A DNA stretch of 64,000 nucleotides from Bilabrum cf. latius (taxonomy: Eukaryota). Location of the stretch: positions 62,001-126,000 of the forward strand of contig OZ237739.1 of assembly GCA_965178125.1 (NCBI GenBank). Reading direction: 5' to 3'. The notes below the pieces were generated by a model, which was given only the letters and a program-made list of their open reading frames with translations, was not told the origin of the DNA and searched no databases. The stretch's first letter is position 1. Each line of letters starts with the position of its first letter. The translations under genes were made by a program, and so were the position numbers. Positions 1 to 64,000 of the stretch are shown one piece after another.

Positions 1-2271
1 GTCCCTGATGCCGACGATGCCCCACGCATCCGACCCGCTGGACGAGTACCCAGTGCCCGACACAGAGCTGCCATCCTCGTCCTCTTCCCTTTCCCCTTGC
101 CAGTCCACGTGCCCATGCCCGTGCCCGTGCCTGCTTCCCACACTCGCAGATCCCGAGCCAGAGCCCCCCACAGAGCCGGCGTCAGACAGGTCACCCGGCG
201 CGCTGTCTCGTCCGGGGAACTCTGAGGAGCTGGGCGCCGACTGGGCCGATGCCACGCGCCCTCGCTGGTCGCGCCGTCTGGAACTGGGGTCGCGCGGCGG
301 GGCGGTGCCGCCGATCATGCGCGAGAGCGGCATGCTGAGCCCGCCCTCGGGGCCGAGGGGGGTGCGGCCATCCTGAGGCTGCCCCCGGGGCGGTGCCACA
401 GGCGCTCGGCTGGGGCTTGCGACAGCTCTCGATGATGAGGTCGCTGCAGCGGTGAGGTGCGCGTGCACGTGCTGGTGGTGCGTGCTGTAGCCCTGGCTGC
501 CCGTCGTATCCACCATCACGGAGGCGCTCTGATACACCGCACCCGCACCCACACTCACACCCGAGTCCATGGCGCGCTGCCCAGTGCTGCTTGTGGGAGC
601 TGAGGCAGCAGCGGGTGACTGCACAGAAGCCGCACCTGCAGCGGCCACATGCCCCGGTATCTCTCGCGGGGGTAGTGCCGCCGCCGCCAGCGCCACTGTC
701 GCTGCCCTGGCCAGCTCCTTGCTTGCTTTCTTGCCCTCTTCCCCCGCGCCAAGCGCCAGTGCGAGCGCCCTCGATGCGCACCGCTGGGCGTGTGCCTCCG
801 CCGCCACCAGCGCCGCCGAGTCGTTCTCCTGCGCCCCCACCGCTGCGTCAGAGGCGCCTGACGACTGGGGGGCAGGGCCGACCCCCAGCAGCATGCCCAG
901 CTCGGACCAGGCCTCCTTCCCCTTCCCCTCGGCCCCCTTGCCCGCCCCCAGAAGAGCACGGAGAGCGCCCCTGCAGACCGCCAGCGCTGCCCTCGCGGAG
1001 TGAAGCCCGGCGACCTTGTCGCTGCCAGCCCTGTGAGAGTGGGCGTGCCTGGCCTGCAGAAGATCCCCCGTCTCCTCCAGGGCCGCAGAGCCGGACCCGC
1101 GCAGCGCACCCGCTACCTGCTACACAAACTCCCCGCGCGCCAGACGGGAAGCGATCACTGCGCCGGCGTGCCCTGGGAGAGCGCCGGCCTCTACGTACTG
1201 CCGCCCCTGTCCCTGTCCCTGTCCCTGTCCTTGCCCTTGCCCTTGCTGGAGCTGCTTCTCCCGCACGAGCCTGGAGGCCTTCACCACCCGCCGGGCCATC
1301 CAGGCACCCTGCTGCCGGTCCCTTAGCCCCAGGGCACTCGAGGCCACCGCCCCGGCCATGGCTCCCACAGCCCCCCACGCACCGTCGTCTCCCTCTTCGG
1401 CCCATGAAGCGTCACCGGCGGAGGCAGGCGACCTCTAGGGGGAAGCGGCCCTGCTGCTGCGCCCGCGCCGCGATGACGCCCCCCTCCTGCCGGACGAGGA
1501 CCTGCCCCCCTTCCTGCCGCCAGGTGCCTGCACCTTGAGCTCTGATCCCGGAGAGGGCAGCACAGCAGCACTCAGAGACTCGAGGGCCTCCGCCACTGCC
1601 TGCCGCCGGGCCCGCTCCCTCCCGTTCTTGCGCTCTCGGCGGGCTGTGGGGCCGGCGGAGGCCTGCGCGCGGGAGGACTTCGCGCGCCCCCCCCTGCTTG
1701 CACTGCGAGAGCGGAAAGTGCCGTCGGGAGCCGGGACGGGCGCGCCGTACTGCCCATCGTCCTGGTCATGGTACTGGTCCTGGCTCGCGGCACCGTCCTC
1801 AACATCCTCAGCGCAGTCGCCGAGGGCATGCGCGTATCTGCGGCGCTTCCTGGGTCTCCTGGAACTCTCGCGGCTGTTTGTGGCTGGCAGAGAATACTCT
1901 AATTCCGGCGGGCCCGCACCTGGTGCGCCAACAGAGACAAATGGATCGCTTGCGTTAGGGCCTGCAACGGCTTCCTGTGCGCTTGCCACGGCAGCACCAG
2001 AGTTGTTCCCAGCTGATACGCTAGCCATCCAGCCACTACTTGGTTGATCAGCATAACTCTCAGCTGAACTGCTCTCGTGGCCGCTGACTGCCGATCGGCC
2101 ATGCGTCGATCGCTTCTTGCGCCGGTAAGTGCTGCCCGCATGTCGCGGTGTTCGGTCAACCCCACCACCGCCACCCAAGCCTAACATGCCAGCAAATCCT
2201 GTCAGTGGCTGATGCTGTCCCTGGTCATCACGGGATGCCTGCCTGCTGTTGTGTCCGTCGGTGTGCTGCAT
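1..2271 (-). CDS. bHLH-domain-like protein, 3' end runs off the window start
   Basis: ORFs 1435..2361 and 1120..1368 are in one frame, joined by TAGs at 1435-1437 and 1120-1122; the frame stays open to base 1. Basic-helix motif RRERKNGRERARRQAVAEALESL. Start ATG 2271 is tentative. Confidence 0.6.
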
Positions 2272-3051
2272 CGCACAACTCACGTCTGGTGCGTTTACTG
2301 TCGACAAGCTCTTTATAAGGACTAAGCTGGAACGTTCAGCACAGGAAATAAAACTTGGCAACCAGAGGTGGGCTTTTGGCTACCTTCGGCTCAACACTGC
2401 GATGATTTTATGCTGCTGCAGAGTCAACTATGCAGGTCGACGTGCTCCTGAGAAAAAAGTTTCTCTCAAGTATTCAGACGAAACTGCCACAGACCTGTGG
2501 TCTGCGAAAGAGATATACAAAATAAAGAAACAGTGAACAGTAAATGAGCATGAAACCATAGGTCTGCCATCGCTTCAGCACAAGGACGGCACCGACAAAT
2601 AGTGTTAGAATGGCGAGGTGAAGCCGCACGCCGCGTTCCAGGCTCTTCTTTTGTACAATTTAGATAAGAAACCATCAGTTGACTACTAATTATCTATTCA
2701 TTGGGACTTTCGCGCCGAGCACATCGCTGTGGAGTGCCGACAGGGCAACATGCACTCAAAGCACCCAGTGAGAGCAACATGGCCGCACCATGAAAGGAGC
2801 GCAAGCTGTGACCAAGTAACCAAGGATATAAAAGCATTCACACACATAATCAAAATGGAGCAAGAACCTTACCGAAAATCCGAGACTGTAACCCCCAGCA
2901 GATGCTGATGTGTCCAGGCCCCACGACGGCGTCACCTCCACGGAAAACTTTTACAATACAGATTTGGAAGAAATGTGAACCCTACAAAGCTTCCGAGGCC
3001 GCCCGCTCTGGAACGAGGTATACTGCAGGCTCATATCCTGTAAAAAGCAGT

Positions 3052-8307: not shown

Positions 8308-11300
8308 TCACCGCCTGCCGCCCCCGTCCCTACCCATCATGGCCATGCGCTGCCCCATGGCCACCATGCGGGCCTTCTTCTGCTCCCTGCGGACTGGCTC
8401 CCAAAGGGCGTCCTCCCTGGCGCGCTTCTTGTTGCGCTCCAGCAGCCTCTTGGCGTCCGTGACCTTCTTCTTCCTGTCCCTGGCCTTCCTAAGCGTGTAG
8501 ATCTTCTGCATGAGGAGCGCCTTGGCCCTCTCGTCCTCCTCCATGACCACCGCCCGCTTCTACAGGTAGCCCTGCTTGCCGCGCTTGCTCAGGTTCTTGC
8601 TCTTGCTCGCGAATGGGAGCTGGCTCTCCAGCTTGTCTGAGATGACAAACTTGGCAAACCTACGCTCCTCGGGCCTCTCCTCGATCTTGCGGTACTCGCT
8701 GTCTTGCTTCTGCAGGGAACCGATGCCCCTCTCTCGCCTGAGCTCCCGGGCCGTCCGCATCAGCACCGTCCCGCCGGAGGAGGACGAGGACGAGGCAGCC
8801 CCGGCCGCTCCACGACTCGCCTTCCCAGCGCCCTACTCCTCCTCCTCGTCCGAATCGCTGTCCTCCCCTGACCCAGACCCCACTGCCGCCGTCCCCGCCT
8901 CACCATCGCCCTGGCCCTGGCTCTGGCTCCTCGCCGCGTCCAGCAGCGCCTTCCTCTCCTTCCTCGATCGCACCAGCTGGCGGCCCTCCCTCGCCTCCTC
9001 CAGCAGAGAGTACACGGGGTTGTAGAACTCGGGCAGGGGCACGGGCACCCACGCCCGCATGAACACAATGTCGCTCCTCAAGATCTTGTCCTCGAACTGC
9101 GCCCGGAAGGAGCCGGGCTGGCCCTCTTTGACGGCCTTCCGGACCCTCCCCCTAATCCCACTCACCGTCCGGATGGAGGCACCCTGGAATCGGGCCACCT
9201 CCAGCGGCGAGTTGAACATGCCGCGGATCACGGCCGAGTGCTTGCTCACCTTGGCCGGCTCGCCCACTAGCTTGAGTTTCTTGACCACGGTCAGGCTTTC
9301 CTCGTTCTCCAGTATGGTGCCAGTGGCGCAGATCCGGTAGGACGAGGCCGTGTCAGAGGTCAGCTAGTAGGCCAGGTAGCCCGTGCTGGGCGGGGTCACA
9401 GGCGCCTGGAATGCGGCCTCGCAGTGCATGTGCTCCGGCGAGTACTTGAGGAAGCGCTTGCGGCCGCTCAGGTCAGCCGTGAAGTACGAGGGCACGGTCT
9501 GGAAGCGCCTCCACCCCAGCGAGACGATGAACGGGTCGCTGTTCTTGAGCAGCCGGCCATGCCACCTGTGGCGCTTGACCCTGGACCGCAGCAGACCCAG
9601 CGTCTCCTCCTGCGCGGAGAGCCCGCCCACCACGACGGGCCTGGAGGGCTCAAAGTGCGTGATGAACTCGGCCGGCATGCCCCGCAGCTCAATCCGCACG
9701 TACTCCCCCGCCCTGTGCCCCCGCATGCGCCTCGCCTGCTCCTCCCTGAGCCCCGCAAACTCGTCCGCGTTAATGGCCTCCTGCAACTCCAGGGCCTCAC
9801 GGGCGGCGGCGGCCCCCTCCTTGCCCCAGTCCAGCCTCGAGGGGTCCTTGAGCATGATCATGCGCTCCTCATCCTCGTCCACCTCCTTGCCCTCGCCCCC
9901 CTCCCCCTCCCCGTCCTCGCCATCATCCCCTCCCTTGGCGCCTGCCTTGAAGGACCCGCGGTCGTACTTGGAGTCGAACTCGCGCTTCTTGGCAGCACGG
10001 AGCGCGTCCATCGCAGCACGGTCCATGTCCTCGTCGTCCTGGTCATCATCGCTGCTGCTGCCATCCGATGAATCCCCGTCATCATCGCTGTCGTCATCGC
10101 TGTCCTCTTCCATGGGCGCTCCCCCGCGCACCACCTCACCTGTCTCGAGATCCTCGAAATCGCCATACACGGAGGAATCGTCCGACTCATTCCCACCCTC
10201 GGCACCGCCCTAGCCGGATCCCTTGCCACTGCCGCTGCCAGTGCGCAGGCCCAGCACCTCCGCCGCCGCCTCCGCCGCCCCCGCGCCCCAGTCCCCTGTC
10301 ACGAACCGGTGCCTGAGACTGTCTGCCGCCTCGGGCGAGTCCCAGCGAGAGGGGTCGGCTGCCATGGACGAAGCACCCGCATGCCCGAAGGAGGCACCGG
10401 CGCCCGACGATGGACCGTTTGCAGGAGCAGAGGAAGGCCCGCCCGCAGGCACGTACAGGCTGCCGTCCTCGCCCCTGGACTGCGGCGCCACCAGCCCGAG
10501 CCAGCTGCTAGCCAGCGCCCTGGCGGTGGAGCTTGGCCCGCCACCCATGCTCCCGTACCCCTGTGCACCGGCAGCCCCGGACCCCTCCTCGCCCTCGTCC
10601 CCGATGGAGGCCCACGGCCTGCCCCCGCTCACCAGACGAGCCGCCTCCGCGGTGAGCAGACTCGACTCACGGGCGGACAGGGACAAGGACAGGGAGGAGC
10701 CCTCTCCACCAGCCGCGCCCCGCCCGCCCCGACTCCTGCTCGCCTTCCCCCTCGCCTCGTCACCCACGCGCCGCAGCAGCCCACCCTCCAGATCGTCGCT
10801 GTCGCTGCCGCTGTCCCCCTCCCCCTCCCCCTCATCTTCCTCCTCGCGCCCCCCAGACCCCCTCGGCCCCTCAAACCCAGTGCCCAGAAGAGCCACCCCC
10901 TCCCCGTCCTCCTCTTCGTCCCCGTACACCAGCCTCTCCAGGTCAACCGCACCGGCCTTGCGCTCGCTCAGCGCAGCCACTGCCCTCTGCACCAGCCGCT
11001 GCTTCCATACCGCCCCGACAGACCTGCCCTCTGAGGCACCGTACACCGCCCCCGCCCCCATCGCTAGCCCATTCCCCTCCTGTTCCCCGATATCGCTGTC
11101 GCTGTCACCGTCAGCCCCTTCTCCTGCGGCGCTGGATGCCCCACCGTACGTCTGCCCCACTCCCTCGCTGCCGTCATCGCTGTCACTGTCGCTGTCACTG
11201 TCACTATCACTGTCGCTGTCGCTGTCGCTGTCGCTCGACTCGCTCCCGTCTTCCTCCTTTTCCTCCTCGTCGGCCTCGCCCCAGTCCTGTTCCCCCGCCC

Positions 11301-12810
11301 CGTGCCTCACCGCAGGGCCCCCCTTGAACAGACTCATCTCCATGTCGCCCATGCGGTCGTCCAGCCCCTCCGCGAGCCCCTGCAGCCCCCGCACCATCAT
11401 GGTGCCGCTCCCCTCCCCGCTCGCCACCGCAGCGGCCGCCCCGGAGCTGCCCCTGCCCCCCGTCAGCCTGAGCCCCAGGGCCTCTGCCTCCGCTTCCGCC
11501 TTGGCAAGTTCCGCATCCAGGCGCCGCGCGTCATCGTCGTTGTCCTCCTCCCCGCCCGCCTCTCCCGCCCTGCGCCCCTTTGCCCCGCCCGCCCCCGCCT
11601 TCAGATCGGAGGCGCGGCTCAGCATGGCGGCCCCGTCGGGCAGGTGGATGTAGGTCGCGTCCTTGTCCATGACCAGCCCGCCCACGTTGCTCATGGGCGC
11701 GTACAGTAGCGTCTCCCTCGCGTTGAGCCTCCTGTGCACCGTGGCCCCGATGGTCTTCCCATCCGTGGCGCCCCCTGCCGCCGCCTGCCTGGCCCTCTGC
11801 TCCTCCTGCAGCTTCTGCTTGAGCTGCTCAGGCAGCGGCACGGGATCGTCCAGCGGATCTACTGCGCTCACCCTAAAGTCCCCAGCCCCGCACACGTGCA
11901 CGGCCTGTCCCGCCTTGAGCGGGGTCCCCCGCACGAAGCCGAAGAGGGCCACGGTCCGATCCGAGTGGGGGGCCGACTGCAGCAGCGCGGGGTTGGTGCG
12001 GTCCTCCACCCTGTCGCACAGCAGGTATGGGTGCGTGCTCCTCCACACGATGGGCCTCATCTTGGTGCGCGAGATGAATAGGCCCAGGTTGTGCACCTCC
12101 CGCTTGAGGTACGAGCCGTGCTTGACCCCCGACAGGTAGAACAGCTTGGCCCCGTGGTACACCTCCGTCCAGAACCTGTGCTTGAGGAGCGTCTTCCTCT
12201 TGCGCATGGCCTTGCTGTCAGCGAATGCGTCCAGGTGGGTGAGCACCCCCATGACCTTGGGGAAGCCATGGGTCTGCATGATGTTGAGCATCTCGAACGT
12301 CTCCATCTCGAAGCCAAAGGAGGCGTCCACCACGAGGAGCATCAGGTCTGCGATCTTCGCCGCGTCTACCATTGCGTTGATGTCGCTCTGCACCTCAAGC
12401 AGGGTCACGCGCTTGCGCCGGCCTGCCACCACCGTGATCGGACCGCGCACGTCCTTAACCTTCTGGTTGGTCCAGCGACGCACGAGGCTCTGAATCAGAG
12501 TAGTCTTGCCTACTCCAGGAGGTCCTGCAACACATACTACCACCGGCGGGTCAGCAGACCCTTTCCGCTGCTCAATGAGGGCGTGCTCCCTCTTGTGCAG
12601 ACGGTCCAAGTTTCGCTGAATCGACCGCTTTGTCTTGCCTACCTTCGCGACACCATACGCTCGCGGGTTCCTGCGCCTTTCTTTTTCTGAAACCTGCTTG
12701 TCACCGAGGCTTGACTGTCCCTTCAACCTCTGCTCCTTCTTCTTCTTAGCCTTGGCTCCGGCTTGTGGGGCGCTATGCGACTTGTTCGGCTGCTGTCCCC
12801 CAGCATCCAT
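8308..12810 (-). CDS. BMS1: Ribosome biogenesis GTPase BMS1 (~1500 aa)
   Basis: [12 protein letters not shown]-loop, [55 protein letters not shown]. Five track ORFs lie in one frame, joined by TAGs at 10210, 9364, 8833, 8560; ends TGA at 8308-8310. Confidence 0.95.
11177..11236. repeat. Imperfect hexamer tandem repeat (TCGCTG/TCACTG) encoding (Ser-Asp)n in BMS1
   Basis: Visible tandem hexamers; translates as SDSDSDSD on the minus strand. Confidence 0.8.
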
Positions 12811-21513: not shown

Positions 21514-23261
21514 TCACTTCAGAGCGAGCGAAAGAGCAGACCCCGATGCTATTCCTACCTGCAAGATAAGTCCCATCAAGAAACCCACCTTCTCTCTGTC
21601 CACCGGGTCCACCATCCGCGGTGCATACGCGAAAGCGAGCGTAGACACGTATCCGTTCGAAAGCGCAAAGACGAGCATCAGCACCAGGGTCCACGGGTCC
21701 GACGACACAACAGGGAGTGCCCTGGCCGCCACGATCCACAGAGGGACGAAGACGATCCTCGCCAGAGAGGCCCACGGCAGCGTCTGGCGAGAGACGCAGG
21801 TGAGCACCGCGGGCAGCGAGCGCCCGGTCGTGTCCCCGATCTGGAAGGCGGTCAGCAGCACCACGGGCCACCAGTCCGCCTTGCTCAGCCCGGGAAGTCC
21901 CACTGTTCCCTCGTACTTGACGGCCACCACCTCCCCGGGGAACACAAAGAACGTCGCGGTGAACACGAACCCAATGGCGAACATCATGGGCCACACCACC
22001 TTGGACACCCGCAGCAGCGCCGTCAGCCTGCCCCCGCAGGACGAGTCCTCCCCCTATCCCTGTCCCTGCTCGCCCCCGGCGCCCAGCAGAGCGTTCGCTT
22101 CCGTCGGCTGCCGGGGCGCAGAGGCCGAGGCAGGCGGGGGCGCCGCCACTCCGTCCAATCCCGCGTCTCCATCCTCATCGTCCCTGCCCCTCTCCCGCTC
22201 CTTGTACTCTTGCATGGAAAATCCACCCGGGGAATCCAGTCCGTTGATGCGGCGAGCGCTCCCCAGCTGGGACCGCCTGCGCGAAGAAGCAGCCCCAGCC
22301 CCAGCTGCGCCCCCCTCCCGTTCCATCTCCCCCTCGAGCAGAGGTGAGGCCATGGGCGACTTTGCCCTTCTCCCTGCCTGCTCATCGGTGCCATTCGCAG
22401 CTCCTTCCTTGCTATTGTTCTCTTCTGCCGCCCTCCTGTTCTCCACCTCGTCCAGGAATCGCCTGGAGAAGGGCATGGACACGAGCCAGAGGTAGCACGC
22501 GGAGCACACGAGCAGCACCACCCCCGCGGTGATGAAGTAGATGATGGCGCTCTCCTTGTGCTGGGTGGGGAGCGCGATCTTGGTGGCGATCCGCAGGATG
22601 GAAGCCAGGATGCCGGCCACTCCCTGCCCACTCATGAGCCCCGTGTTATAGATCTACGGGTAGAGGCTGCTGAGCCCAAACAGAGACGGCTGCTGGATGC
22701 TCGTGCACACCCCGATGAACAGAACCGTCCCGATCGTAACCCAAACCCCGTAATGCGCGTAGAAGGGAAGCAGCACCAGCACGATAGCCTGTCCGATAAA
22801 GGTGCTCAGGATGCGTGCGCCGAACGAAAAGTTTTCCCCGACGACCATCACCACACCCAGCATGGGAAGTTGGGGGTAAATGTACGCCACAGACAAGAAA
22901 AAAGATATGCCGCTACCAGGATACTCTTCCGTAAAGTAATCCAAACTGCGAAAAATTGCAACAAAGTCGGCGCGTAGTAAATGTCACAAGAGTGTGTTTG
23001 TGCAGGCGCAAGCTTCAGGCTCAAAAAGGCTTGCAAAAGCCAGACTCACGCAAGAAGTACGATATTCCACGGCATCAGGAGCCCCAAACCGAGGATGGTC
23101 ATCAATACATACGCCGTGCAATTGAAGTCGGATGGTTTTGATATGTGGCTGCCATCGTCGTCTTCCAGTACGTCGCCGTGGTGCCCCAACGTCGGAGTTC
23201 GGGGAGGAAAATCTTTCTTATTTTCAAGTTTCTTCACCTCAGGTGAAATTGCGGCCTGCAT
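21514..23261 (-). CDS. Equilibrative nucleoside transporter, SLC29/ENT family (~547 aa)
   Basis: Exons 23261-23050 and 22945-21514; splicing restores LGLGLLMPWNIVLLA/LDYF. Motifs MSGQGVAG, FFVFPG, GDTTGR, LSNGY. TAG at 22654 and 22054; ends TGA. Confidence 0.9.
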
Positions 23262-44400: not shown

Positions 44401-44769
44401 CGGCTAATGACCGCTCGTAATATTTAGAGATGAAAAATCGAAGTCAAAGTCGTCCTCGGTCGTGAGAGTTGACGTGCCAAACTCATCATTGCCCTCTTCG
44501 CCGTCCGGTGATTCGCCGTCGCCATTCTTGCTCTCGCTCGCGCCAGCTCCCGACGATGCAACCCTTCGGGACAGCTCTGACATGCTGAGGGATGCAGTTC
44601 CACCGAGGAGCTCATCGCGCGCGCTATCTTCGTTCCCGTCTGCACTCTCTGGCTCGCTTGCCTGCTTTGCTGGAGCCTTTGGCGCCGGAGAGTCAGCGTA
44701 TCGATTGGGGGTGTCAGCCGTCACAGTCGACCCTGCAAACAATGCATTTCTTGACGCATCTTCCTGCAT
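41449..44769 (-). CDS. VPS52: GARP complex subunit VPS52 (~1044 aa)
   Basis: LQSFQQQLGSITREIRGLQ..KLRNR, LKRPNTNVQMLQ, YEQVFRS, CHDSVAILL, LAWPRFKAIFDANLKS, PHSATKRFAEF. Intron 43459-43644; TAG at 44404, 44257, 43771, 43042, 41497; ends TGA. Confidence 0.9.
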
Positions 44770-46071: not shown

Positions 46072-46168
46072 TGTTTATCCTTCTTGCCGTCACTGTACGA
46101 ACCTTGCAGTGCCGTTCCTGAAGCCTGGTTCCGGGTTCTACAAATCTACTGATTATTGGCATTCGAAG

Positions 46169-47173: not shown

Positions 47174-47362
47174 TAGTATACTGGAGGCAAGCCCTTGTTA
47201 TTTTGCATAGAAATTGTGCGCATAATCCACTTCCACTTCCAGTCGGCACGTCTGGTGAATGGTGGCTTCAAGTTGCTGCCCGCAATCGTACTTCCGGTTT
47301 ACATGGATCGGAGCAGGAATCAACTGTACTTTTCTTGCCACGGATAGAGCAACAAAACAAAC

Positions 47363-47435
47363 CGCCTCTGCTAGGATTCGAACCTAGATTGAGTGCTTCA
47401 AAGGCACCAGTGCTGAACCATTACACCACAGAGGC
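47363..47435 (-). tRNA. trnQ: tRNA-Gln, anticodon UUG
   Basis: Cloverleaf GCCTCTG TG GTGT-AATGGTTCA-GCAC T GGTGC-CTTTGAA-GCACT CAAT CTAGG-TTCGAAT-CCTAG CAGAGGC G (73 nt); anticodon at 47399-47401; T-rich Pol III-like terminator follows. Confidence 0.92.
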
Positions 47436-47770
47436 ACAATTCCCAGATGCCAAATCACCAAGCAACGGACCTGCGACACCCCGTGTACGAGCACATTCTA
47501 CCCCAAAGAAGCAAGAGGTTTCGACAGAGCCGATCCCAGCAGGCTCCGCAATGCGACCGCACGAGCTCCACCCTGCTTCACCCAGTGTACACGCCGCCCT
47601 GTCTCCACATCGCCTGGCCGGTGAGGGTAGTTTCGCCCGCCGATCGAAGGGTCCACCTTCACCGCACGGCGACGGCAGAAGCCAATAGCCGTGCGGTGGC
47701 CTCGCACCACAGTGACGAATCTACCACGCAAGTGACGCGACGCAAGTCGCCACCAGGCTGAAAGGCCGGC

Positions 47771-50833: not shown

Positions 50834-53800
50834 ATGGCGATGTCTGCAGCATTGAAACAGCGACCGCGAAGATCGTTGCCCCATGCGCAAGATGATTCAA
50901 GCTCGCTCGATGCCGCACAATCGTCTGGCTTAATTGCTGTTTTAGCCGCGGCATCGGTTGTGTCCCTGGCTTGCATTGGTTTGGCAAGGCGGTCCAACCG
51001 AATAGATGGGCGAGGCCGCGATCGTAGCTGGTCCGCGCCTTCAATGCTCGGCGAATCGCAGCTGAGAGGAAGCATACAGTATGGTCAATCATTTGAACAA
51101 ACCGATCGATCGGGAGTTCCAGTGGGTGCCGCAGCTCGAGACTGGCAAGTTGAGCAACACGATGCATATCTTGGTACATCGTGCACACATGGCAAGTTGA
51201 GCAACTGGGATGCTCGAAGACTGATCGAAGCGCCAAATTCATCGATCAATGCGGGCAAAGAGTCGTGCAATGTGCTTGGGGTACAGCTTTCGGACGAATT
51301 CTTCAGCGGGGCCGTCCACGTAACTGCTCTCGTCCTGATGGCAGGCGCTCTGGTGGCAGGGCTACTGCCCCTCTTCGCACTTCTGGCGGCAGACCTTCTG
51401 CGGTTTGGGCTATGCTGGCGGGTGATGCCGGTAGAACTGCTGACCGCGGCAAGCTGCTGCCGCTGCTGCGGGCTTGCGCCTGCCCGGCAGGCCAGGTCCC
51501 AGCAGTAGGGCAATGGTGAGTAGGGCCGTAGCAGTGGCAGCGGGACGGCTAACACTAGAACTGGAACTAGGATAGGGGCTGAAGGCACTGGAGCCGGTCC
51601 AATGCCAGCGCCCAGCAGCGATCAAGACGAGCACCTGCACCGGCACCTGCACCTGCACGCACGGTTCTTCGGCACTGCGCTGGACAACGCCGATCTTCCC
51701 AGGGAACACAGAGACAGGGTGGCCGACAGCCTCACCCACCAGTGGCTCATGCTCGCAGGGGCTGTGGTCCTCGCCGCCCTCCAGATCGCCCTTGCTGTCC
51801 TCCTGCTCGCCGACCCCAGCCAGGGCTACTCCGGGTCGCTCCCCGTTGCTCTCAGGCTGCTGCAGTATCCCCTCGGGTGGGTCCCCTTCGCCTCGGGTGC
51901 TGCCCTGCTCATGCACGGACAACTGGCACCAAGAATCACCGGATCAGGGGCACGCGGGGGGCGCACGTACCATGTCACTGCCCCAGTGCCCGCCCTCGCG
52001 GTGCTGGGGCTCAGGCTCTCTTTCGCTTGCGGGCTGGCTGCGGTGCTGACCACGGTGTTCCCCGAGGAACAGCTATTCCGGTTTGTGGCTAGGGTAGAGG
52101 AGGGATCGGGAGTGGAGACGGGGCGCGCGGGCGCCGTATTTGTTCCTCTGTCTGAAACAGCCGCGCAAGCCTACCTGACGGGGGAATCCTCCTCCTCTGG
52201 ATCTGGATCAGGGTCGGTGGTAGACTCGGCCATGGGGCGAGTACCAGGTGTGCTGCTGGCGGCATGCGTGGGGCTGCTGACGGTGTCTGTGCTATGGGGC
52301 ATCGTGGGCGTGCTGGCGGTAGACGTGCTGATGCGAGACAGGCACGTGAGGCGGAGCATGTGCTGCGGGCGGGCTAGCTGCCTGCGATGCCTCTTCCCCT
52401 GGCTGTGTTTCTGCGGGGAGGGGTCCAGGGAACAAGGGCCCCAATGGCTGCCCGTGACCCAGCGCGAGACGGTAGAGCAGTACTACTCGACGCCCAGCGC
52501 CGATATGCTGCTAGCCAGGAGCGCGGTGCTTGTCCTGTGCGCCACCCTTCCTGCCCTGACCGCTCTCGACTGCTACCACGCGAGCCTTGTGTTCGAGGAT
52601 GAGACAGACTTGGTGCCGTTCGAGGACCCCATTGCTTGGCGGATGCTTAGGATGGCCTTCCTGCAGTGGGTGCCTGTCCTATTCTGCGCAGTGGCGTTCC
52701 AGGGCTCCAGGGCGCTGGGTGCGCATGCCGCGTGCGACGAAATGCTGTTCCAGTCCAGACTGCTCGAGCTGGACCTGGAGCACAGGGTGATCGAGGCGCA
52801 GGCCAGGGGGGATGACGCCGAGGAGGCAAGACTGCTGCGTCGTGTGAAGGCCGGTGCACTGCATGGTGGTGCTAGCACACTGCTCGCCGGCGGCTTCCCG
52901 AGCGACAAGAGCAGCAATAGCAATGGCAGTAGCAGCCCAACCAAGTCGGCCAGGGGAGCCCCAGCTGCTTCTTCTTCTGGTAGCGTCCATGGCCACTCCT
53001 AGCATGACGCGGCTGCCCGCGACATGATGGAGCTGCGGGCCCGGCTGTCGGCGCAAGAGGGCGTGCTGCAGGGCATTTTGCGAGCCACGCATCAGGCGCT
53101 GCAGCCGATCGCGGGCCACGTGCGCGGTGCCTTGTCATACGCCACCCGGGCCGTGTGCTGCGTCTGCTGCCCGAGCCCGGCCGAGGAGCAGGAGGCGCCC
53201 CCCTCCGTGCAGCTGCACCAGCTTGTCACCTGGTACGTGTGCTTCCTGTTCCTGGTGCTGTTCGCAGCGGGGCTCAAGGAAAGCTGCGAGTCGCCCATCG
53301 ATGAGCTCTCGCCGTACGCTGTGCTGGCACGGGCGCCGGCACTGCCCCTGCAGGTGTGGCTGCCCGTGCTGCTGGCCCTCGTTAGGCTGAATGCGACTCG
53401 CCGGATCATGCGGCACAACCTCGGGATGGGGCATCTGCTGCCCCTCGATGACGTGACCGAGCTTCACCGCGTAGTGGCGTGGATCGGCTTCGTGCTCTTT
53501 ACGCTCCACACCATTGGCCACGTCTTGAACCTGGCCTACTGGGCCGATGGGCCTGCTAGCCGTCCCGACGTGCTTGCCAGGGTTGGTCAGGAGTACGTCA
53601 AGTTCTTTGACCGAGCTGCGGGGGCGAGCGTGTGGCGGCTAGCAGCTGACAACATCGCCGTCCTCACCGGGGTCGTGCTTCTTCTCTGCTTCGTGTGGAT
53701 GCTTGCCCTCTCCGAAGAGAGGCTCACCAAGCAGAGGTGCCCCTGCATCGCATGCACGGCCAACGGGGCATGCTGCTGTGCACCCGTGCTGCCCGAGGAC

Positions 53801-56316
53801 TCAAGTGGATCGGCTAGTCGTGCAGGGTCGCGGCGCGGCGGGCGGGGCCAAGCCCCCGCTGCACCGCAACCCGTGCGCAGATTTCGGTTCTGCGGGTGCT
53901 GTTCCATGGGAGCAAGGAGTTACTACCGATGCTGCTCCACTGCACTGGCATACCTCCCTAGGCAGACAGCCATCGGCGAGGTGGATGCGATGGTAGAGGC
54001 ACTGGTGAGGAAACTGGAGGATTCGGCTGGGCGGCAGGACGCTGCATCGGGGCAGATGGCCAGAGAGATCCGGAGCTAGTAGCCGACGACTGCAACGCAG
54101 CAGCAGCAACAGCAAACCCAACAAAAGAAGCAGGCAGCGGCGAGCAACGGCAAGTCCAAGGCCCCGAAAGATAGCGGTGCTGCTGCGGCTGCAGGGACTG
54201 GCGCAGGCCAGGTGCAGCTGCTCATCACTGGGAGCTCAAGCGATGCTGATCCTTCCATGGTGGCTAATGCCAGCCAGAAAGACCCAACCGCTTTCGGCAC
54301 AGGTGCACCACAGCCGCATGCAAGCCGTGGCAAACCGACCGCTGCAGCTGCAGCTGGTCCCGACAAGAACCAGGCCGGGCCAAACCAGGCGGATGCCCCC
54401 GCCAAGGCACCTCTTCTCCCTCCGTCATCTCGGTCCGCAAGAGCTGCCGATGGCGCGCCCAGCCAGCGCCCCGACGACGTGGCTCACGCCGCGTCCCGGC
54501 TGACCAAGGAGGAGAGAGACGCCGCAGAGGCACTGCTGGACCCTTACCTGGGCCAGTCGACGCCCGTGACACGGACCAGCATACGGTGCTTCAGGCACTC
54601 CAAGCGGGCCTGCAGCGCAGTGGCGGCCATCGCCTGGCTGCTTCATGGGACGGGTGGGCTGCTGGCTGCACCACTGGTTGCGCAGCTCTCGGTGGGCGGT
54701 GTGGTGGTGATCTCATACCTCGTGGCAGAGCTGCTCGACTTCCTGCTGGGGCAGGGGGGCTGCTGCTTTCCCGCCCGGGTGTACACAGTGAGCTCGCTGG
54801 CATTCCATGCAAGCGGCAGGCTGCGGACGGAGGTGGACGGTGTGGTGAGTGGACAGGCCACCACGCTCGCGTTTCACGAGGGGGTGCGTCTGCAGCGGTC
54901 CATCGAGGCACTCAGGGGCAGGGAGGGCACGAACATCGCAGCAAGGAAAGCGAGGCTTCAGCGCGCCGCCCGCGAGTTCGGGCGCCACTTCAAAGACAGG
55001 ATGGAGTTTCCCCGCTCCAAGCTCCTGCACGAGGTGCTGCAGGCAAGAGGGGATATTGAGGCCGGCAAGGCCATGCCAAAGCGATCGCTGACAGTCGCCA
55101 TCGACACGGCCGGCCCCGCGTGGGAGCTGGCTCAGATGGACCGTCTCATGTGCATGCAGGAGCACGAGGCCGTGGGTGAGATCAGGGACGGGATGGTCAT
55201 GCTGGGGCTGCGGGACGCAGGGGAGCGGGCGGCGACGCTGCAGGAGAGGCTGGACCGGTCCTCTGGCCACACTGTCAAGCACCACAGCATTCTTCTAGCG
55301 CAGGCGCGGGAGGTGTTCACCGAGCTGTTCTACAGGCGGGCAGGGATCGAGGGGCTGCCGTGCAGCCGCTGTCCCCCCGAGCTCCGGACCTGGTTCTTCA
55401 CAAAGGAGGCCGTGGACGTTGCGCTCGGGGTCAGGAGACAAGCGGCGACCATCCGACCGGGGGAGTACTGCCGCCTGGGTTTGCTCGAGCCGGACGAGCA
55501 GGCGGGCGGGGGCTCCCAGGGACAGGGCTCGTCTTCGTCCGTGCAGACGACTCTGTTCAGCGAGACTCGGCCCTTCACCATCGCGGCCCGCAGGAACGAC
55601 AGCGACGGCACGCCCAGCGGATTCGAGCTGCACATCGATGCCAGCGGGCAGGGCACGCTCGAAGAGGGCGAGAGCTTCACGCGGTTCCTGTACGAGAGAC
55701 TGGCGCAGGCCGTTGTGCGGCAGCGGATCCGGCGACTGCGCAGCGTGGTGGAGGGGCAGCCGGTCACTGGGGACATAGCGTTTCCCATGCTGCTTGTGCA
55801 CGGCCCGTTCCCAGCGCCCGCGGTGCGACCTGCTTCGGGCGAGGTGCGCTTCGTGCTGGCATTTGCCACCGGGTTTGGAATCACGAACTCTCTGGCCCTG
55901 TTTCTCAACCAGATATGGCTGCACACGCGCCGAGACCTTGCGGCACAGCACTACGCTGAGCCCGTGGAGGAGGAAGAAGAACGGCTGGCGGCTGCAAGGG
56001 TGGGTGTATCGGCCCAAGCAGCAGCTGATCAGAGCTCCGGCCAAGCGCTGCCAGAGAGACACGGCTTGGGCGCGTCTGCGGGGGAACCCGCGTCTGGTAG
56101 TAGGCCACTCGACAACGGTTCGACCACACGACTCGATATGGATGAAACAGCCGATTCAAAGGGTGGGGTGAATGCAGGCAACGACGACAATGATGCGGGC
56201 AATTCTTCCATGCGGGCGTTGCCTCCTGGCCGAGAAGACCAAGATGGTGATGGTTGTGATGGGGATGCGAGTGAAATAGCAGCGGCAGCCTCCGCAAATT
56301 TGGCAGGATCGCCACC

Positions 56317-56349
<33 letters not shown>

Positions 56350-58135
56350 CAACAGGACCCCGCCAAGGCACCCTCCCGCTGCTGGTGCGCGCCAAGATCA
56401 GGCAGAAGTCCTTCCTCCCTCGTCCATCATCCGAATCCGGGCTCCCCACCGGCCAGTCTCAGATGCAGGCCCGGGGCCTGGTGCGCGCCTCAGCCCGATG
56501 GTGCAGCCGGGCGGCGGCCGCTCCATCGGTCCAGCCGCCGCGCACCTGATCCAGCACCGACTGAGGCACTCCCGCCGCGCCTCGCACTGGGGCTCCTCTG
56601 GCAACATACTCGGGGCCGACCTGCAGCTGGGGAACACGATCAGGGAACAGCACCGCGCAAGCAGCGCAGGTCAGGCCCAGGTGGGTGGCAGCCAGGGAGA
56701 GGCAGCTACGGGGGGCAGGCACAGCTCCCGGTCCGTTCTGAGCGGGTCTCTGACTGGCCCACCCCCGCCTCCCAGCACCACTTCGACCAAGAGAGATCTA
56801 GGCGCCGACTCGTCGCAGCCTTCCAATGCCGTCACCGGTGCCAGTGCTGACAGCAAGCCCGCCGATCCATCGCAGCCCAAGGCAGGTCCGCCTCTCCCTC
56901 TGGCCCTTCGCCCCGTGCAGCAGGGCGAGCTGCCCTACGACCGACTGGGGACTGACGGATCCACAGTGCGGCCATTTACCGACACTGACATCCTGGAGGC
57001 ACTCGTCACATCAGGTGCCTCTCGCGACGCGGCCCCGCGGACCCTGTCTCGCGAGGGAACTTTCACGGCCCTCGGGTGGGTGACTGGCGACCTCGATCAC
57101 GCGTTCAGCGTGGTTGCCGAGCTTGGTGCGAACGTGCTGGTGGCGGCCTGCGGCATTCCTCGGCGGTCCGCCAACGAGTTTCTGAACCGCGCAGTGGCGC
57201 TGCTGGACGTGCATGGCATCGATGCGGAGAGCCCCGTGTTCCCTGCGGCTCGGGAGGTCCTGGAGCACCCCACCTTCCATCCGGAGGTGGATGCGGCGGA
57301 CAGCAGCGACGATGAGGACGAGGACGAGGACGGAAGCGATGGAGAAAATCGCCCGGGGCACCCCCGGCGTGTGGCTGGTCATTCTGCGGGTGTTCCTGCC
57401 CCCGACTCGCTCGAGGGTGCCGATGCGCTCACAGAGTAGGACGTTTGTCCGACGTTCCAGGAAGCAAGGGAGCGGGAGGTGGAGCAGTAGGGGCGGCACA
57501 GAGACGCAGTCAAGTACCTCGACAGGACCATTGAGGGCGAGAAGAAGAAGCTGCTGCAGCAGATCGAGCAGAACGGGTGGCAGACGGACGGGCTGGAACC
57601 CAAAGACCGCAGCATTCGGGAGGCAACCGGAGGGTCTCGGGGATCTGGGGGAACACGCAGGGAAGGCGGGCGCACCGAGGGAGGGGCAGCAGAGGGGGCA
57701 GCACCTGCTGCCAGTGGTGGCGGTTCCTCCCCGCTGGCTGTCATGATGTCTTGGCTGCCCCGACTGGGGCACGGGGAGCTTGCGGGCTTCGACGCGTACG
57801 TGTATGTGTCCACGAGTGCCCTGCGGAGCGAGCGGCACGTTGGGCGGCTGGTCTATCTCAAGCGGCGGCTGGAGCTACTCATGGGCCTCGGCGCGCTGCT
57901 GGGCATCAAGGTCAAGCTGTACGACAGGCGGTCCCAGCCCGTGTCTCCGATGCTGGAGCGGACGGGGGCACTGGAAGAGGCCATGATCGCGAGCAATCCG
58001 CGTGCAGGGGCAATGCGGCGGGAGGCGCAGTGCATTTACTGCGGAGGGTCGGGGGCGGTGTACAGTGAACTGGAAGAGGCAGCCGCCAGCGTCCAGGGCC
58101 ACGATGTGAGGGTGTCGCAGGAGGTTTTTAGCTGA
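50834..58135 (+). CDS. Giant divergent NADPH oxidase / ferric reductase-like membrane protein (~2430 aa)
   Basis: One frame through TAGs at 51506, 51521, 53000, 54077, 54080, 57437, 57488; ends TGA. LPLDDVTELHRVVAWIGFVLFTLHTIGH (His pair), LLHG, RPGEY, RPFT, HGPF, TGFGIT, IYCGG..EVFS. Start uncertain. Confidence 0.75.
56318..56347 (+). repeat. CAG trinucleotide repeat encoding poly-Gln (10 Q)
   Basis: (CAG)9 CAA inside the NOX-like CDS. Confidence 0.85.
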
Positions 58136-58238: not shown

Positions 58239-61200
58239 TCAATCTAACCCTAAAATGGCCTGAACGTCGCTGTCTGCAGGTAAGGTCACGGAAGCGAACG
58301 GACGCCGGACCGCTTCAGCGCCTGCTGCTGCCTACCCTCCAGACACTTCCTGGGCCGCACCGGCCGCCAGGCCGGATGCCGCATCGTCAACGAGCCCTCG
58401 CAGTTTACCGAAAGCAGCCCGCAGAACCTGCCCCACCCTGCGTCTCACGCGCTGCCGAACCCGCGGGGCACGCAATCGGCCACCAACTTGCTTGGACAGC
58501 TCGAACCGCGAGCAGGCGCGCCACAATGCACTTGTCACGCGTTGCAGGATCTCTTCCGACTGCGTCAGCCCAGCCGAGTCCCCAGCGCGCAGCCCGCGCA
58601 CTGCGCGCTCTGCCGAGGCAAAACCGGCCCCCTCCAGCACAGACGCGGCCTCGGCCTCCACGACGGCTTCCTCCGCCTCTCCCTGCTACGCTGCAAGGCG
58701 CTGCACCCATGCCGAGGTGGCCCCGTGTCTCCTCAGCCGCTGCAGCAGCACCTCGATGCTGTTCACCGTGTGCACCGCCCCCTGCCCCTTCGGCTAGCTC
58801 TCCGCCGCAGCTCTGACGGCCTCCACCGCAGGACGCAGCACCGCTGACAACACCGGGGCCAGCCGCCTACCACTCTCGCCCCCCATCGCGTCCTCCACCG
58901 GATCTGCACCACCACGCGATCCATTCGCACCGCTCCCCAGCAGCCTCAGAAACGGAGCCAGCCGCTCCACAGCGTCCTCGCACGCGGGATGCGGCCCCAG
59001 GTCAGGAGGCACCGCGGGCACAGCCGAGGCAGAGGCACCGGATGTGCCCAGGCCACCGCCGCTGCTGCCCAGCGCCACATCCCCGCCCTCCTTAACAGCC
59101 AGGTAAAGCCGTTCCTAGGCCGCGGCCTCAAGCGCCGACAGCTGCGTCAGGAAGCTGCTCGAGGCGCTCAGCAGCGGCCTGGGCCCGCCATCTATGGGCC
59201 CTGTCCCCGCGGCACCGCCTGCAGACCGTTGCCCCTACTGGCCCAACGAGAGCATGCCCCGGTATAGAGCGAGCGTGTCCAGGATGCGGTAGGCAGCCAG
59301 CCCGTCCCCAGCCGCCTCCACTGCCTGCTAGAGACGGACCCTGACCGGCTGCTCAATCGCCGATGCGAGGTCGTCCAGCGAGGCAGGAGCCACCTCACAT
59401 GGCAGCGGCACTCGCTCCTCGCCTTGCTCCTTGCCTCGCTGCTCATCCCCGCGGGCCTTTGCCCGGGCATCTGCAGCTTCTGATTCTCCTTCTTTGCTTT
59501 CGGCCGCATCATGCTGCTCTCCTGGACCCTCGGGCTTGATGTCTTCTGCTTCATGGGCACTTCCGACCTTAGCGCCACGACTTTGACCACCATCAAACCC
59601 CCCACGGCTAGCTAATATAGTACTGGTCCTCGCCACTGTCCCAACACCAGCAGCCCCACCCCCAGTCCCCGCCCCAGTGGCCAGCAGTCCAAGCGGGGCC
59701 AGCACGGCCTCTCTCTCCTCCACCAGCCTGCTGTGCACCCACCCCAGCACATCCCCGACATAGCCCGCGCTGTCGTGCAGCCTTGCATCCAGCGGGGCCA
59801 CGCCTCGATCGGGGTCCCCTCTTGACAGCGCGCGCACGAGGTCACGCGCCACCACGCGCCTGCGCGCCCCCAGCACGGCCTGCACCGCCCTCCGCAGCAG
59901 CGCGGGCCGCATCACCAGCCACTCCAGGGCCAGCCGGAGCAGACCCCCAGCGCCCGCCCCCTGCCTTGCTCGCGCCCTCGCTGCCATCCCGAGCCTGGCG
60001 CGCATGACACGCTCTCCCAACCAGCCAGACCTGCCTGCGAGCACACTACCGTCATCGACAGATCCAGCAGTGGCAGCAGCAGCGGAAGACTCTGACCCGC
60101 CGCCCTAGTCCCAGGACTCTAGAGCCTCCAGCGCGCTCACGAGCTCCTCCCCGTTCCCGCCGCCGCCCCCCATACCGCTATCCCCGCTCGAAGCACCGCC
60201 TGCAGGACCCCCCATGCCTCGCAATCCCGCAGCCCCCAGCTTCATCTTGCCCATCACTGCCTCCAGTGCTCCCGGCAGCCTCATCACCTGATCCCTTGCT
60301 CGGGGCCTGGAGCCACCACCGCTCCCACCACCAATGACCCCCAAGCCCCTCCCGATCGACGAGGGCCCTCGCCACGCGAACGCATCGCCATCGCCCTCGC
60401 CCTCGCCCAGCCCTGCACCACCTCCTCCCCGTCCTCTCCCCTCCTTGACCTAGAGCTCAGGGCCCAGCATCACCGGCAGGCGGACCTCAGGGGGGTCTGA
60501 CCGGGCCCACAGCCGCCCTGCAGCAGCCACGGCCCACCGCCCCATCCCCTGCAGCGCCCCCTCCTGCGCCTCGGCCGTGTGCTTCAGGGCGTCCATGCCC
60601 AGAGCGTGCAAGGGGGTGCCCAGGAGAGCCACGCTGCGGGCCCTCGCCCACCTGACGTGCTCCAGGGTAGAGAAGCAATCGCATGCCAGGGACAGGGCAG
60701 GCTCATGCCCATCGTGCGGTGCCGTGCTGTCTGCTGGTGGTGCTGCTGGTGCGAGCTGCTCGCCGGCCGGGCGGGTCTCCTCGGCCGACGGTCCGCGGGC
60801 CAGATCCTAGTGCTACGCCATAGGTGCGATGAGGCCCGCAATGAGCGCACTCAGGTGGCTGTCCTGGTGGGAGTGCCCTGGACCCTCCTTGGCTGCCTGC
60901 CGCTCCTGAGGGCCGACCACGAAGGCAGCGCACAGCAGCGAGGAGCAGTACCGCTTCTTTTCGGCCGCGATGGATAGCTTCTCAAACGTTGATGAGTACT
61001 GCAGTAGCTTGCTCAGCCTACTTTCTGTCAGTCGCAACCTCTCATCAGCCGCCTCGGCTTGCTTCACAGCGGTATCAGCCAACTCCACGACGGCCTCTAC
61101 AGCCTGCAGAATCCGACGGTACAGCACATAATCCATGCAATATAATTCAACGCAGCAATACTTAACATGCCATTGAACGAGAAAGCGGTGGCGTTCTTAC

Positions 61201-61506: not shown

Positions 61507-61929
61507 TGCAAAGTGAGTGAGATCGCGTGTTTTGGATCGCACGATCATGCCGTGCACCGCCCGGACCTGGAGGGCATGCAACTTGTCTGGTGGTGCCGTG
61601 CCGCGCCCCTTCCGGTGGCTGGGGAGGGCTAGCTGCGTTCGAATGGCGTGGCACTCATTGAGGAGGTAGGGTGGCTACAGCTCGCTTCAAAGAAGCTAGT
61701 GCTCGAGCTGCGAGCGGGACAGTCCACCCACCGCTGCTGCCTCCCGGCCGCGGAAAGGAAAGGCGAGGCACTGTCCCGCGCGCTCGGAGCTATTTCAAGT
61801 AATCACATGCTGGAGCTGACGGAAAGAACAGGCAGCCAGCCATACGTAGGGTCTCGCGAGAACCACTGGCACTCTAGTCCTGCCGTCCTGCTCTCCTGCC
61901 ATCAAAACCCCCTCGTCACCGTGCCCCCC

Positions 61930-64000
61930 TCAAGCCCCGGCCAGGTCCTTAATGGGCTAGTACTGCTGCAGCAGCCTTACCTTCTCCTCTAAGCCGTTTG
62001 GTTTCTTTAAGAGCAGGCAGGCCATCAGCCGCAGCACGTCCACCTGTGTTCCCCTGCCACTATCACCACCGCCGCCACCACTCGGTGCACCAGCCTGTCC
62101 TTGGCTCTCGGCACCCGCCCGCGCGCTGCTGAATCGAAGCTTGGCTGCTGATGAAGCCTGAGCGGCCTTGCCTGGCTTCAAGCGTCCCTGTTCTTGGCCA
62201 GTCCTGCCACTGCGGAGCAGCTGCCTGCCCATGCCCCAGTCGATCGGGGCCTCTGGACGGCTGGCCGCATCGCCGCTGTCCATCTGCAGCAGGGCACCCT
62301 CTCCGCTCGTGAGCTCGTGCCAGCACCGCGCAAGCTTGTTACTGCTGCTCAGAATGGCGCCTTCCTTCCGTAGGTGAGCCGGGGACAGCTTCTTCAAGGT
62401 GGCTCGCACCTCCGCCGTATACGCCGCCGCCCTGGTCTCCTTGGTCTTCGCGTTGGCACTGGAAATGAGCTATACCGGGGACAATGCCAGTGGCGGTGTA
62501 GTGGTTGCAGTCCTGCCGCTCGGCTAGGAGCAGAACGGACCCGAGTACCCGCTTTCGCACAGGCACACCCACTCCATGTGCAGCATGGACTCGGTGTGAT
62601 CGCTGTCAGGTGCCTGCTGCCTGACTGCGTGATCACGAACCGGGCTGTCGAGATCTAGCGACAGAGAGCACGCGCCATGCCCGCTGCAGACTGGTGCTTC
62701 GTGGTTGCTGCCCGGTTCTCTGCAGGACTCTGCCCTGGTGCGTCCCCCCAGGCCCAGCACGGCACCGGCATGGCCTCTGAACTGCTCGCGGATCTTTGCT
62801 GTGCTGGCCTCGGGGCGCACGACGTAGTTCTTGGTGACGATCAGGCTGAGCTCTTCGTACGACTACTTTGACCAGCCGTGCTTGCCCAAGCCACACCCGT
62901 CGAACGGGGCCGCCTGCATGAGCTTCTTGCCCGTTCGCGTCATTGGCGGCAGGCACACCTGCCCCGTGGCATTCCCTCGGTGCGTGGAGGACGGCGCCGG
63001 CAGAACGACTCGCAGGGAGTAGGACAGCTTGCCTGCCTTAGACAGCTCGAGGAGCTCATCCCGCGTGGCCCCGATGCTTGCAGCGGGCACCATGTGGGCA
63101 GGGCTGGACCCGTCCTGCGGCAGCTCGCCGTGCCTGTTCACCTCCATGCCTGGGTGTGCGAGCAAGATGGACTCCAGTGGCGCCCCACCCCCACTTTGCG
63201 AGTACAAGAAGGCTCGTGCCTCGTATTTGGAGTTGTTGGTGCCGATCGTCTTGCCGCATCCCTCTATCAGACCTTCGAACGGCTGACTGGGCAGGGCAGG
63301 AGCATGCCAGCCGCCGCCAGCCGCAGGCACCACACCAGACGGCACCGCCATCAGCCCGGGCTCTGCAACCTCTCCCAGTTCCTGCTCCCTGGCCCATTCC
63401 TCCACTCTCTCCAAGTCCCAGTTGTATCTCTCGATGATGTCCTTGGGCTGCTCCCCGATCCCGTAGTACTCCGTCTGCGACCACTGGGAAGCGCCGGCTG
63501 CTGCCTGATCGGCCCCGCACGCCACCCGAGCGACCCGGAAATCGAAACTAGGGATGATCTGTCGCTTCAAGAAGGACTGCTTATGATAGGCCTTGCTTCG
63601 TGCCGTCAATATACCACCGTACAATCCTGTCACGGATGCTTCCGCATCCGTGCTAGCGCTGTAAGCAATCTGCAGCACGCCGAGCACGGCAGGCGAACCA
63701 CCCAACCCGTTTCCTGGCTGCGGCTGGTCTGAGTCAAGCAGTGCGCCGCCCACATGATCTGCAGGTGCGGCGAGGAGCAAGGATCGCTATTGCACGCCCT
63801 CGGTCCTAGCAGTCGCAGGAGGCCGGGTGGCTTCGCATGACAGCCCGGCTCCGTGCGGAGCCTGCGTGCAGGTCACCATGTTCCGCAGCGTGACGCCAAC
63901 GACCACCTGCTGTGGCGCAGTGACTCCATTTCCCTCCGGCCGCACAAAGACAGGCAGCTGCGAGGGTCCCTCGGGCTGTTTCCCGAGGCACTCTGCACTT
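61930..64000 (-). CDS. EGF-like-domain-containing protein, 5' end beyond the window
   Basis: Frame open from the window end through TAGs at 63787, 62863, 62524, 62470, 61957 to TGA at 61930-61932; EGF-like CSGHGAC...CLCESGYSGPFC. Confidence 0.65.

Follow-up and report, generated by a model that had tools for sequence, protein, structure and literature searches.

UAG as a probable glutamine codon in the GC-rich, intron-poor nuclear DNA of a putative stramenopile

The stretch of DNA analyzed here, referred to as the window, comprises 64,000 nucleotides (nt) of contig OZ237739.1 (positions 62,001 to 126,000, forward strand) from assembly GCA_965178125.1, listed under Bilabrum cf. latius. Its GC content is 64%, and its genes are a typical eukaryotic nuclear housekeeping set that includes BMS1, RPB11, Vps52, COG6 and a GRX5-like glutaredoxin (Table 1). 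The host genome is intron-poor, and the GT..AG introns seen as spliced joints are few and measure 90-231 nt. When TAG is read as a sense codon, the window is full of long open frames on both strands. An earlier reading of the letters alone, termed the original prediction here, had claimed that UAG was reassigned to sense in this genome. That claim is borne out by homology spanning the TAGs, by the lack of in-frame TAA and TGA, by identical sequence in four sequencing runs, by TAGs in spliced contigs and by TAGs in relatives. The evidence base is the 64 kb of the window; the reassignment stands within it, and the "genome-wide" part of the claim is an extrapolation from it. With high probability, UAG is translated, most likely as glutamine, in a GC-rich, intron-poor stramenopile in which UGA ends every gene seen.

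UAG is a sense codon within conserved nuclear coding sequence. The length of open reading frames (ORFs) was rejected as proof of this, since ORFs in such GC-rich DNA become longer still once TGA is also taken as sense; the valid test is therefore whether homology is kept in the same frame past TAG. In-frame homology continues past TAG in BMS1, GRX5, aspartoacylase, the translation initiation factor IF3, RPB11, the equilibrative nucleoside transporter (ENT), Vps52 and COG6. In BMS1 (Pfam RIBIOP_C 2.3e-76 and AARP2CN 1e-23; 3178 homologs in the protein search), the GTPase and AARP2CN domains lie upstream of the TAGs, one of which falls within RIBIOP_C. The alignment of GRX5 with GLRX5 in the PDB (4.4e-34) passes through its TAG, as does that of ENT with ENT1 (7.7e-31). 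Aspartoacylase is aligned with a PDB aspartoacylase through the TAG over residues 9-310 (2e-50), and the PDB alignments of IF3 span both of its TAGs. In RPB11, the Pfam domain RNA_pol_L_2 (1.5e-13) spans the first TAG, and alignments with RPB11 structures in the PDB pass through TAG as well. Vps52 carries the Pfam domains Vps52_CC and Vps52_C, and a search of its exon 2 against the PDB returned zero matches. The sites singled out in the original prediction were all recovered. With x marking the TAG, these are CGFSxQAV in GRX5 (40336-40338, minus strand), NPRATxEIRRF in aspartoacylase (38975-38977, plus strand) and GxWYEIA in the lipocalin-like gene (24487-24489, minus strand), together with four sites in BMS1 and two in RPB11, both in exon 2. 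The lipocalin-like exon scores 22.6 bits for Lipocalin_2 (cut-off 24 bits), and its sole PDB match is a weak one to ApoD (E 0.0056).

The 21 long ORFs of the window (16,700 codons) contain 66 in-frame TAGs, no TAA and no TGA. Once the splice joints had been used to refine these ORFs, and GRX5, RPB11 exon 2 and the lipocalin exon had been included, there were 23 gene models with 17,047 codons in total, containing 69 in-frame TAGs and again neither TAA nor TGA. At least one TAG is present in 20 of the 23 models. The original prediction had counted about 77 TAGs in 22 of 25 genes, which is right in size and not in the exact number. Nine further TAGs lie in doubtful ORFs or extensions left out of the count (2850-3347, with one; 15849-16460, with five; 20674-21279, with one; and an N-terminal extension of unk2, with two) and bring the total to ~78. 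The statements of the original prediction that no internal TGA occurs and that all clear gene ends are TGA proved correct: every one of the 23 ends examined is TGA, and none is TAA or TAG. TAG usage amounts to ~4 per 1000 codons, and UAG would make up roughly 9% of glutamine codons. Recoding of the pyrrolysine or selenocysteine type was considered and rejected in view of this frequency, the presence of TAG in most genes and the alignments with glutamine.

Out of frame, the same ORFs contain 163 TAG, 57 TAA and 507 TGA triplets. Random lesions would therefore be expected to be mostly TGA, and the probability that all 66 in-frame stops are TAG under a random-lesion model is ~1e-43. This figure bears directly on the explanation that the TAGs are artefacts or signs of decay, whether because of errors in assembly or sequencing, very short introns, UAG-to-CAG editing or pseudogenes. 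No points in favour of this explanation were found. It is further opposed by the fact that essential genes (BMS1 and RPB11) are affected, by the lack of sequence differences between four runs, each of a different study, by the TAGs kept in spliced contigs, and by a related species with TAG at other positions of the same genes (contig L001, discussed below), and it is considered extremely improbable.

Contigs of four public runs, one from each of four studies (X1, X5, X6 and X8), were compared with window positions 38001-58000. Across these 20 kb, zero differing letters and zero indels were found in the contigs of all four runs, so that assembly error, which the original prediction had named as a possible source of the TAGs, finds no support at the level of contigs as opposed to raw reads. 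GT..AG spliced joints at 41005>41101 and 43458>43645 were seen in X6 and X8 and not in X1 or X5, and those at 46299>46390 and 46457>46689 in X6 only. Removal of the introns of RPB11 (41006-41100) and Vps52 (43459-43644, minus strand) restores the reading frames of both genes. By their spliced joints alone, the contigs of X6 and X8 are probably RNA-derived. Weighing against this, X6 is automatically labelled "probably DNA", none of the runs is registered as RNA, and contigs were compared rather than raw reads. The compared region holds 19 TAG sites; among the contig pieces listed, X6 covers 16 and X8 covers 8 of them, with no differing letter, and the two sites of RPB11 as well as Vps52-1029 (genes with numbered residues are written in this form throughout) fall outside these pieces. 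Neither CAG nor TGG nor splicing, the mRNA-level outcomes that the original prediction had proposed to look for, was found at the 16 of 19 sites covered by the listed RNA-derived pieces. One X6 contig has the Vps52 intron spliced out and four TAGs retained, and all 7 TAGs of the large membrane protein, called FRD here, lie within RNA-derived X6 contigs. That the TAGs are kept in spliced contigs and identical in four runs argues against assembly error, CAG editing and in-frame mini-introns.

The relative positions of the TAGs are spread evenly along the genes, with a mean of 0.49. This distribution is relevant to the possibility that UAG is ambiguous, being sense inside genes and a stop near mRNA ends, as in Condylostoma and karyorelicts. 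Ambiguous codes of this kind exist (PMC11687900), and the last 5% of ORFs holds 3 of the 69 TAGs (Vps52-1029, unk6-681 and COG6-935). Two of these late TAGs, Vps52-1029 and unk6-681, are indistinguishable from terminators here and count against an unambiguous sense codon. However, the tails past COG6-935 and FRD-2219 are conserved in proteins of relatives (P0123 and, at 96%, P0273, respectively), none of the 23 gene ends is TAG, and the even spread shows no concentration toward the ends. Ambiguous UAG is thus regarded as very unlikely.

TAA is not a sense codon in the window. The gene models use CAA and CAG in a ratio of 93:586, and at the same bias ~10.9 in-frame TAAs would be expected, whereas none was observed (P ~2e-5); the code is therefore not of the NCBI table 6 type. 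A code of that type, known from ciliates and Hexamita, would have both UAG and UAA reassigned, with UAA rare through GC richness and UGA as the sole stop. UAA and UAG have been reported to usually shift meaning together (PMC5304391), and the lack of any TAA among the 23 gene ends would suit such a code. Nevertheless, that lack also fits a TAA that is merely a rare stop: TAA accounts for ~10% of the out-of-frame TAA and TGA triplets, which gives a probability of ~0.09 for seeing none in 23 ends, and a sample of this size is compatible with a rare stop as well as with an unused codon. Together with the missing in-frame TAAs, this leaves the joint reassignment of both codons unlikely.

The amino acid read at UAG is very probably glutamine, as judged from alignments with homologous proteins. 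At residue 1149 of BMS1, which is encoded by TAG, 113 of 120 homologs have Q, six have K, one has S and none has E; at residue 1417, another TAG, no residue is as frequent as Q (32 of 120 homologs). Seven comparisons with close relatives at TAG sites, which carry the most weight, gave Q five times, E once and R once. With Q at 4.1% of residues, five of seven would arise by chance with P ~2e-6. The relatives' residue is Q at COG6-108 (P0124), at COG6-603 (P0122, 65% identity) and at FRD-2219 (TAG at 57488; P0273, 96% identity), and the FRD tail beyond the last site is 96% conserved. Furthermore, the window has CAG at the sites of two TAGs of contig L001; the flanks are identical, and each pair differs by a single transition. 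The BLOSUM sum over the seven close-relative sites is 28 for Q, 15 for E and 10 for R, and a rough estimate of substitution rates suggests that glutamine fits the close-relative data far better than glutamate.

Several observations weigh against glutamine. At COG6-935, the residue of P0123 (88% identity) is E, and one TAG of L001 stands opposite AGG (Arg) in the window. The 13 columns from distant homologs show, for the most part, variable polar residues (N/R/K, R, Q/E, K/E/A, R, S, S, R/K/E, A, D, E), the second S being the residue of all five RPB11 structures aligned, and they are not decisive for either Q or E. A crude BLOSUM sum over the distant columns is slightly higher for E (16.1) than for Q (14.3), and a test of neighbour-residue context did not discriminate, with T, N, S, H, K and Q scoring alike. 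These data could be taken to mean that UAG encodes glutamate or another polar residue, and UAG is known as a glutamate codon in peritrich ciliates (PMC11687900). The E in P0123 and the distant columns speak for it, as does the distant homolog P0125, which has D at COG6-603 and E at COG6-817. The near-invariant Q at BMS1-1149, where no homolog has E, the five of seven close-relative pairs with Q, two of which are CAG/TAG pairs one transition apart, and the BLOSUM score of close and distant sites combined (Q 42.3 versus E 31.1) speak against it. A residue other than glutamine is therefore held to be improbable.

The reassignment of UAG also extends to relatives. When COG6 was used in a full HMMER search, it retrieved short proteins of relatives (85-89% identity) whose ends match TAGs of the window: P0124 ends at residue 110 and P0121 at residue 603, each at a window TAG. 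For FRD, P0274 ends at residue 2202, which corresponds to the window TAG at 57437, and both P0273 and P0274 show 94-96% identity to the window and form single-member clusters. Evidently, genes of the relatives were called under the standard code and cut short at in-frame TAGs of their own. Gene callers that assume the standard code fragment the genes of this organism in the same manner, and what public databases contain for its relatives are proteins truncated in this way. A collection of 15 billion proteins contains none of the window's own proteins. A homolog search with COG6 residues 380-965 at near lengths found no match and was probably swamped by low-complexity words.

Among metagenome contigs, three of 587 pattern matches were confirmed as BMS1-related loci (L001, L002 and L003), and none of 263 BMS1 pattern matches in genome contigs encodes a relative. 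L001 (1-3705) is syntenic with the window, with BMS1 and the methyltransferase arranged head-to-head as in the window, and shows 71-76% nucleotide identity to it. Its BMS1 has 80% amino-acid identity to that of the window over 598 codons and contains five in-frame TAGs, at positions other than those of the window; its GC content is 59% versus 64% for the window. In L002 and L003, BMS1 is free of in-frame TAG, and the BMS1 frame of L002 reaches a TAG past the last conserved residues, which is read as its stop. On these alignments, the UAG change is common to a clade that comprises at least the organism of the window, the L001 species and the relative with 65% identity. The Logan fragments (85-96% identity) belong to the same clade, whether or not their source is the L001 species.

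The original prediction had guessed at a heterotrophic stramenopile flagellate and called for a BMS1 phylogeny, which was run as a quick, single-gene maximum-likelihood tree of 41 BMS1 sequences. The best BMS1 match is from the bicosoecid stramenopile Cafeteria, with 51% identity over the best local alignment. In the tree, the window lies inside a stramenopile clade of 28 rows, supported at 100% by the Shimodaira-Hasegawa-like approximate likelihood ratio test (SH-aLRT), and in a set of 13 rows with Cafeteria (99%) that adjoins the labyrinthulomycetes. These results agree with the guess and point, as a pointer only, to a stramenopile of the Bigyra that may be related to Cafeteria; the long branch of the window (1.03) and its deviating amino-acid make-up count against the placement. 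Cafeteria groups with the window and differs from it in having a standard-code BMS1: in Cafeteria and its neighbours, BMS1 is predicted full-length under the standard code, at 1283-1448 amino acids. As these neighbours are full-length under the standard code and L002 and L003 are free of TAG, the change is confined to a narrower clade. The earlier suggestion of an undescribed lineage is supported only by the organism's absence, both in the literature searched and in the protein database.

The mechanism may be outlined by analogy with established codes of this kind (PMC5304391). In such codes, a tRNA-Gln with anticodon CUA would decode UAG and not UAA, and it would be one mutation away from tRNA-Gln(CUG); the release factor eRF1 would have lost its recognition of UAG, as through a change like T32G, which is reported for Iotanema (PMC5304391). 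Under GC pressure, TAA and TAG could have become rare and TGA the default stop, so that UAG would have been easier to capture (the codon-capture route). Weighing against the glutamine code is the fact that no tRNA with anticodon CUA is present within the window or the L001-L003 contigs. The only tRNA of the window, tRNA-Gln(UUG), reads CAA and CAG and is not the expected decoder of UAG, and an eRF1 gene is not encoded in the 64 kb of the window. A more far-reaching proposal is that a hitherto unrecognised GC-rich clade of heterotrophic stramenopiles, to which the organism of the window, the species of L001 and of the Logan fragments and the metagenomic relative with 65% identity would belong, captured UAG for glutamine, with UAA fully out of use and UGA as the sole terminator. 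It would be the first change of the nuclear code in stramenopiles and a natural instance of stop-codon capture under GC rather than AT pressure. This proposal is offered tentatively and is, on balance, doubtful.

Changes of the nuclear genetic code are rare, and a change of UAG without UAA is even less common, since all three stops are read by a single protein, eRF1. Codes in which UAA and UAG both specify glutamine (NCBI table 6) are found in many ciliates, Hexamita, Streblomastix, ulvophyte algae and Amoeboaphelidium. They resemble the code of the window in having UAG as glutamine and UGA as a stop, but UAA is a common sense codon in them, whereas no in-frame TAA occurs in the 17,047 codons of the window. 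Reassignment of UAG alone to glutamine (NCBI table 15 type) has been described in two phyllopharyngean ciliates, Hartmannula sinica and Trochilia petrani, as well as in Iotanema spirale and Protocruzia tuzeti (PMC5304391, PMC11687900). The code of the window is like that of these species in that UAG is sense at glutamine positions and UAA is not sense, and unlike it in that UAA is their main terminator, while the window has TGA at all 23 ends and no TAA. The window also differs from the known hosts in its GC content of 64% and its putative stramenopile host. Nuclear stop-codon reassignment in a stramenopile was not found in full-text literature searches, the scope of which excluded subscription journals and supplements. 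The code is a known variant in what is probably a new major lineage for it, with an unusual base composition, and if UAA proves unassigned it would be a new code variant.

A stramenopile case would add an independent origin in a major and well-sampled group of eukaryotes. The combination of a GC-rich genome and the dominance of TGA bears on the codon-capture idea, according to which a stop made rare by base composition is easier to reassign. The eRF1 of such an organism would also be a natural example of discrimination between UAG and UGA, and perhaps between UAG and UAA as well.

Table 1. Features of the 64-kb window (positions as counted in the window; empty cells, nothing reported)
Feature	Position	Strand	In-frame TAG	End	Remarks
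unk1	1-2559	-	4
eIF4E	3416-4837	+	3		Pfam-supported
unk2	5330-8011	+	4
BMS1 ribosome-biogenesis GTPase	8308..12810	-	4 (10210, 9364, 8833, 8560)	TGA	1500 codons
NDUFAF7-like methyltransferase	12995-15685	+	1		Pfam-supported
unk3	16640-18322	+	none
acyltransferase	18586-20451	-	4		Pfam-supported
equilibrative nucleoside transporter (ENT)	21514..22863	-	2	TGA	Pfam Nucleoside_tran 5.8e-50
lipocalin-like gene	23902..24657	-	2 (in exon 24262-24657)	TGA	probable last exon 23905-24261
organellar-type translation initiation factor IF3	24832..26358	-	2 (25789, 25636)	TGA	Pfam IF3_N, IF3_C
RRM/PTB-like protein	26264-30742	-	6		Pfam-supported
unk4	31779-36848	+	3
WD40 protein	37068-38417	-	none		Pfam-supported
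aspartoacylase-family protein	38780..39835	+	1 (38975)	TGA	Pfam AstE_AspA_cat 1.9e-28
GRX5-like monothiol glutaredoxin	40087..40623	-	1	TGA	TAG directly after CGFS motif; Pfam Glutaredoxin 4.5e-21
RPB11 exon 2	41101..41329	+	2 (41201, 41273)	TGA	95-nt GT..AG intron 41006-41100; exon 1 end 41005
Vps52	41449..44769	-	5	TGA	1045 codons; exons 44769-43645 and 43458-41449; 186-nt GT..AG intron
PG_binding protein	45181-46071	-	2		PG_binding_1 1.6e-06
spliced small gene	46390-47173	+	none in likely coding part		24th model, outside the 23 counted
tRNA-Gln (anticodon UUG)	47362..47436	-			ARAGORN; Rfam tRNA 64.9 bits; sole tRNA gene in window
unk5	47771-48523	-	1
small methyltransferase	49521-50279	+	none		Pfam-supported
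large membrane protein (FRD)	50834..58135	+	7	TGA	2433 codons; ferric-reductase-like match weak, below Pfam cut-off
COG6 main exon	58239..61136	-	10	TGA	965 codons; Pfam COG6_C 5.8e-33
unk6	61930-63999	-	5

Some of the gene models call for comment. The N-terminal part of COG6 (ORF 61165-61425, minus strand) lies in another frame than the main exon, and the two are contiguous in the relative P0142; an intron between them is likely (window 61137-61425). No Pfam match was obtained for this N-terminal piece. FRD may be ferric-reductase-like at most, a weak assignment in keeping with its sub-cut-off Pfam match. No rRNA was found within the window.

Long low-complexity tracts are present in many of the proteins, including GQ, GS and DS repeats, poly-A/G and poly-Q. 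TAG frequently occurs within or beside such tracts, for example within a GQ repeat of the nucleoside transporter.

The PG_binding protein is secreted-looking and has a peptidoglycan-binding domain, and its C-terminal part presumably resembles a bacterial L,D-transpeptidase. A peptidoglycan-binding protein of this sort is unusual for a eukaryote, and the gene may be a bacterial acquisition. The small gene near 46.3-46.7 kb (plus strand) has introns at 46300-46389 and 46458-46688, the joints of which were seen in X6 contigs only. Its product is short, glycine/alanine-rich and membrane-like, and the gene ends in TGA with a TAG directly after it.

The DNA of window positions 38001-48000 was found in runs of four studies under four different organism labels, with 63-100% of sampled words present. 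Small shares of it also occur in a run labelled "algae metagenome" and in one labelled "protist metagenome". The organism may be present in cultures of other organisms, as a companion or a contaminant, and its DNA may be mis-annotated in runs that bear other labels. Summed contig depth at window positions 51341-52007 rises ~100-fold in all four runs (in X1, 1913 versus ~18), and many short joints connect 42.4 kb, 51.6 kb and 57.3 kb. The depth jump and joints look like the effect of a GC-rich low-complexity repeat common to many loci and organisms rather than a real rearrangement.

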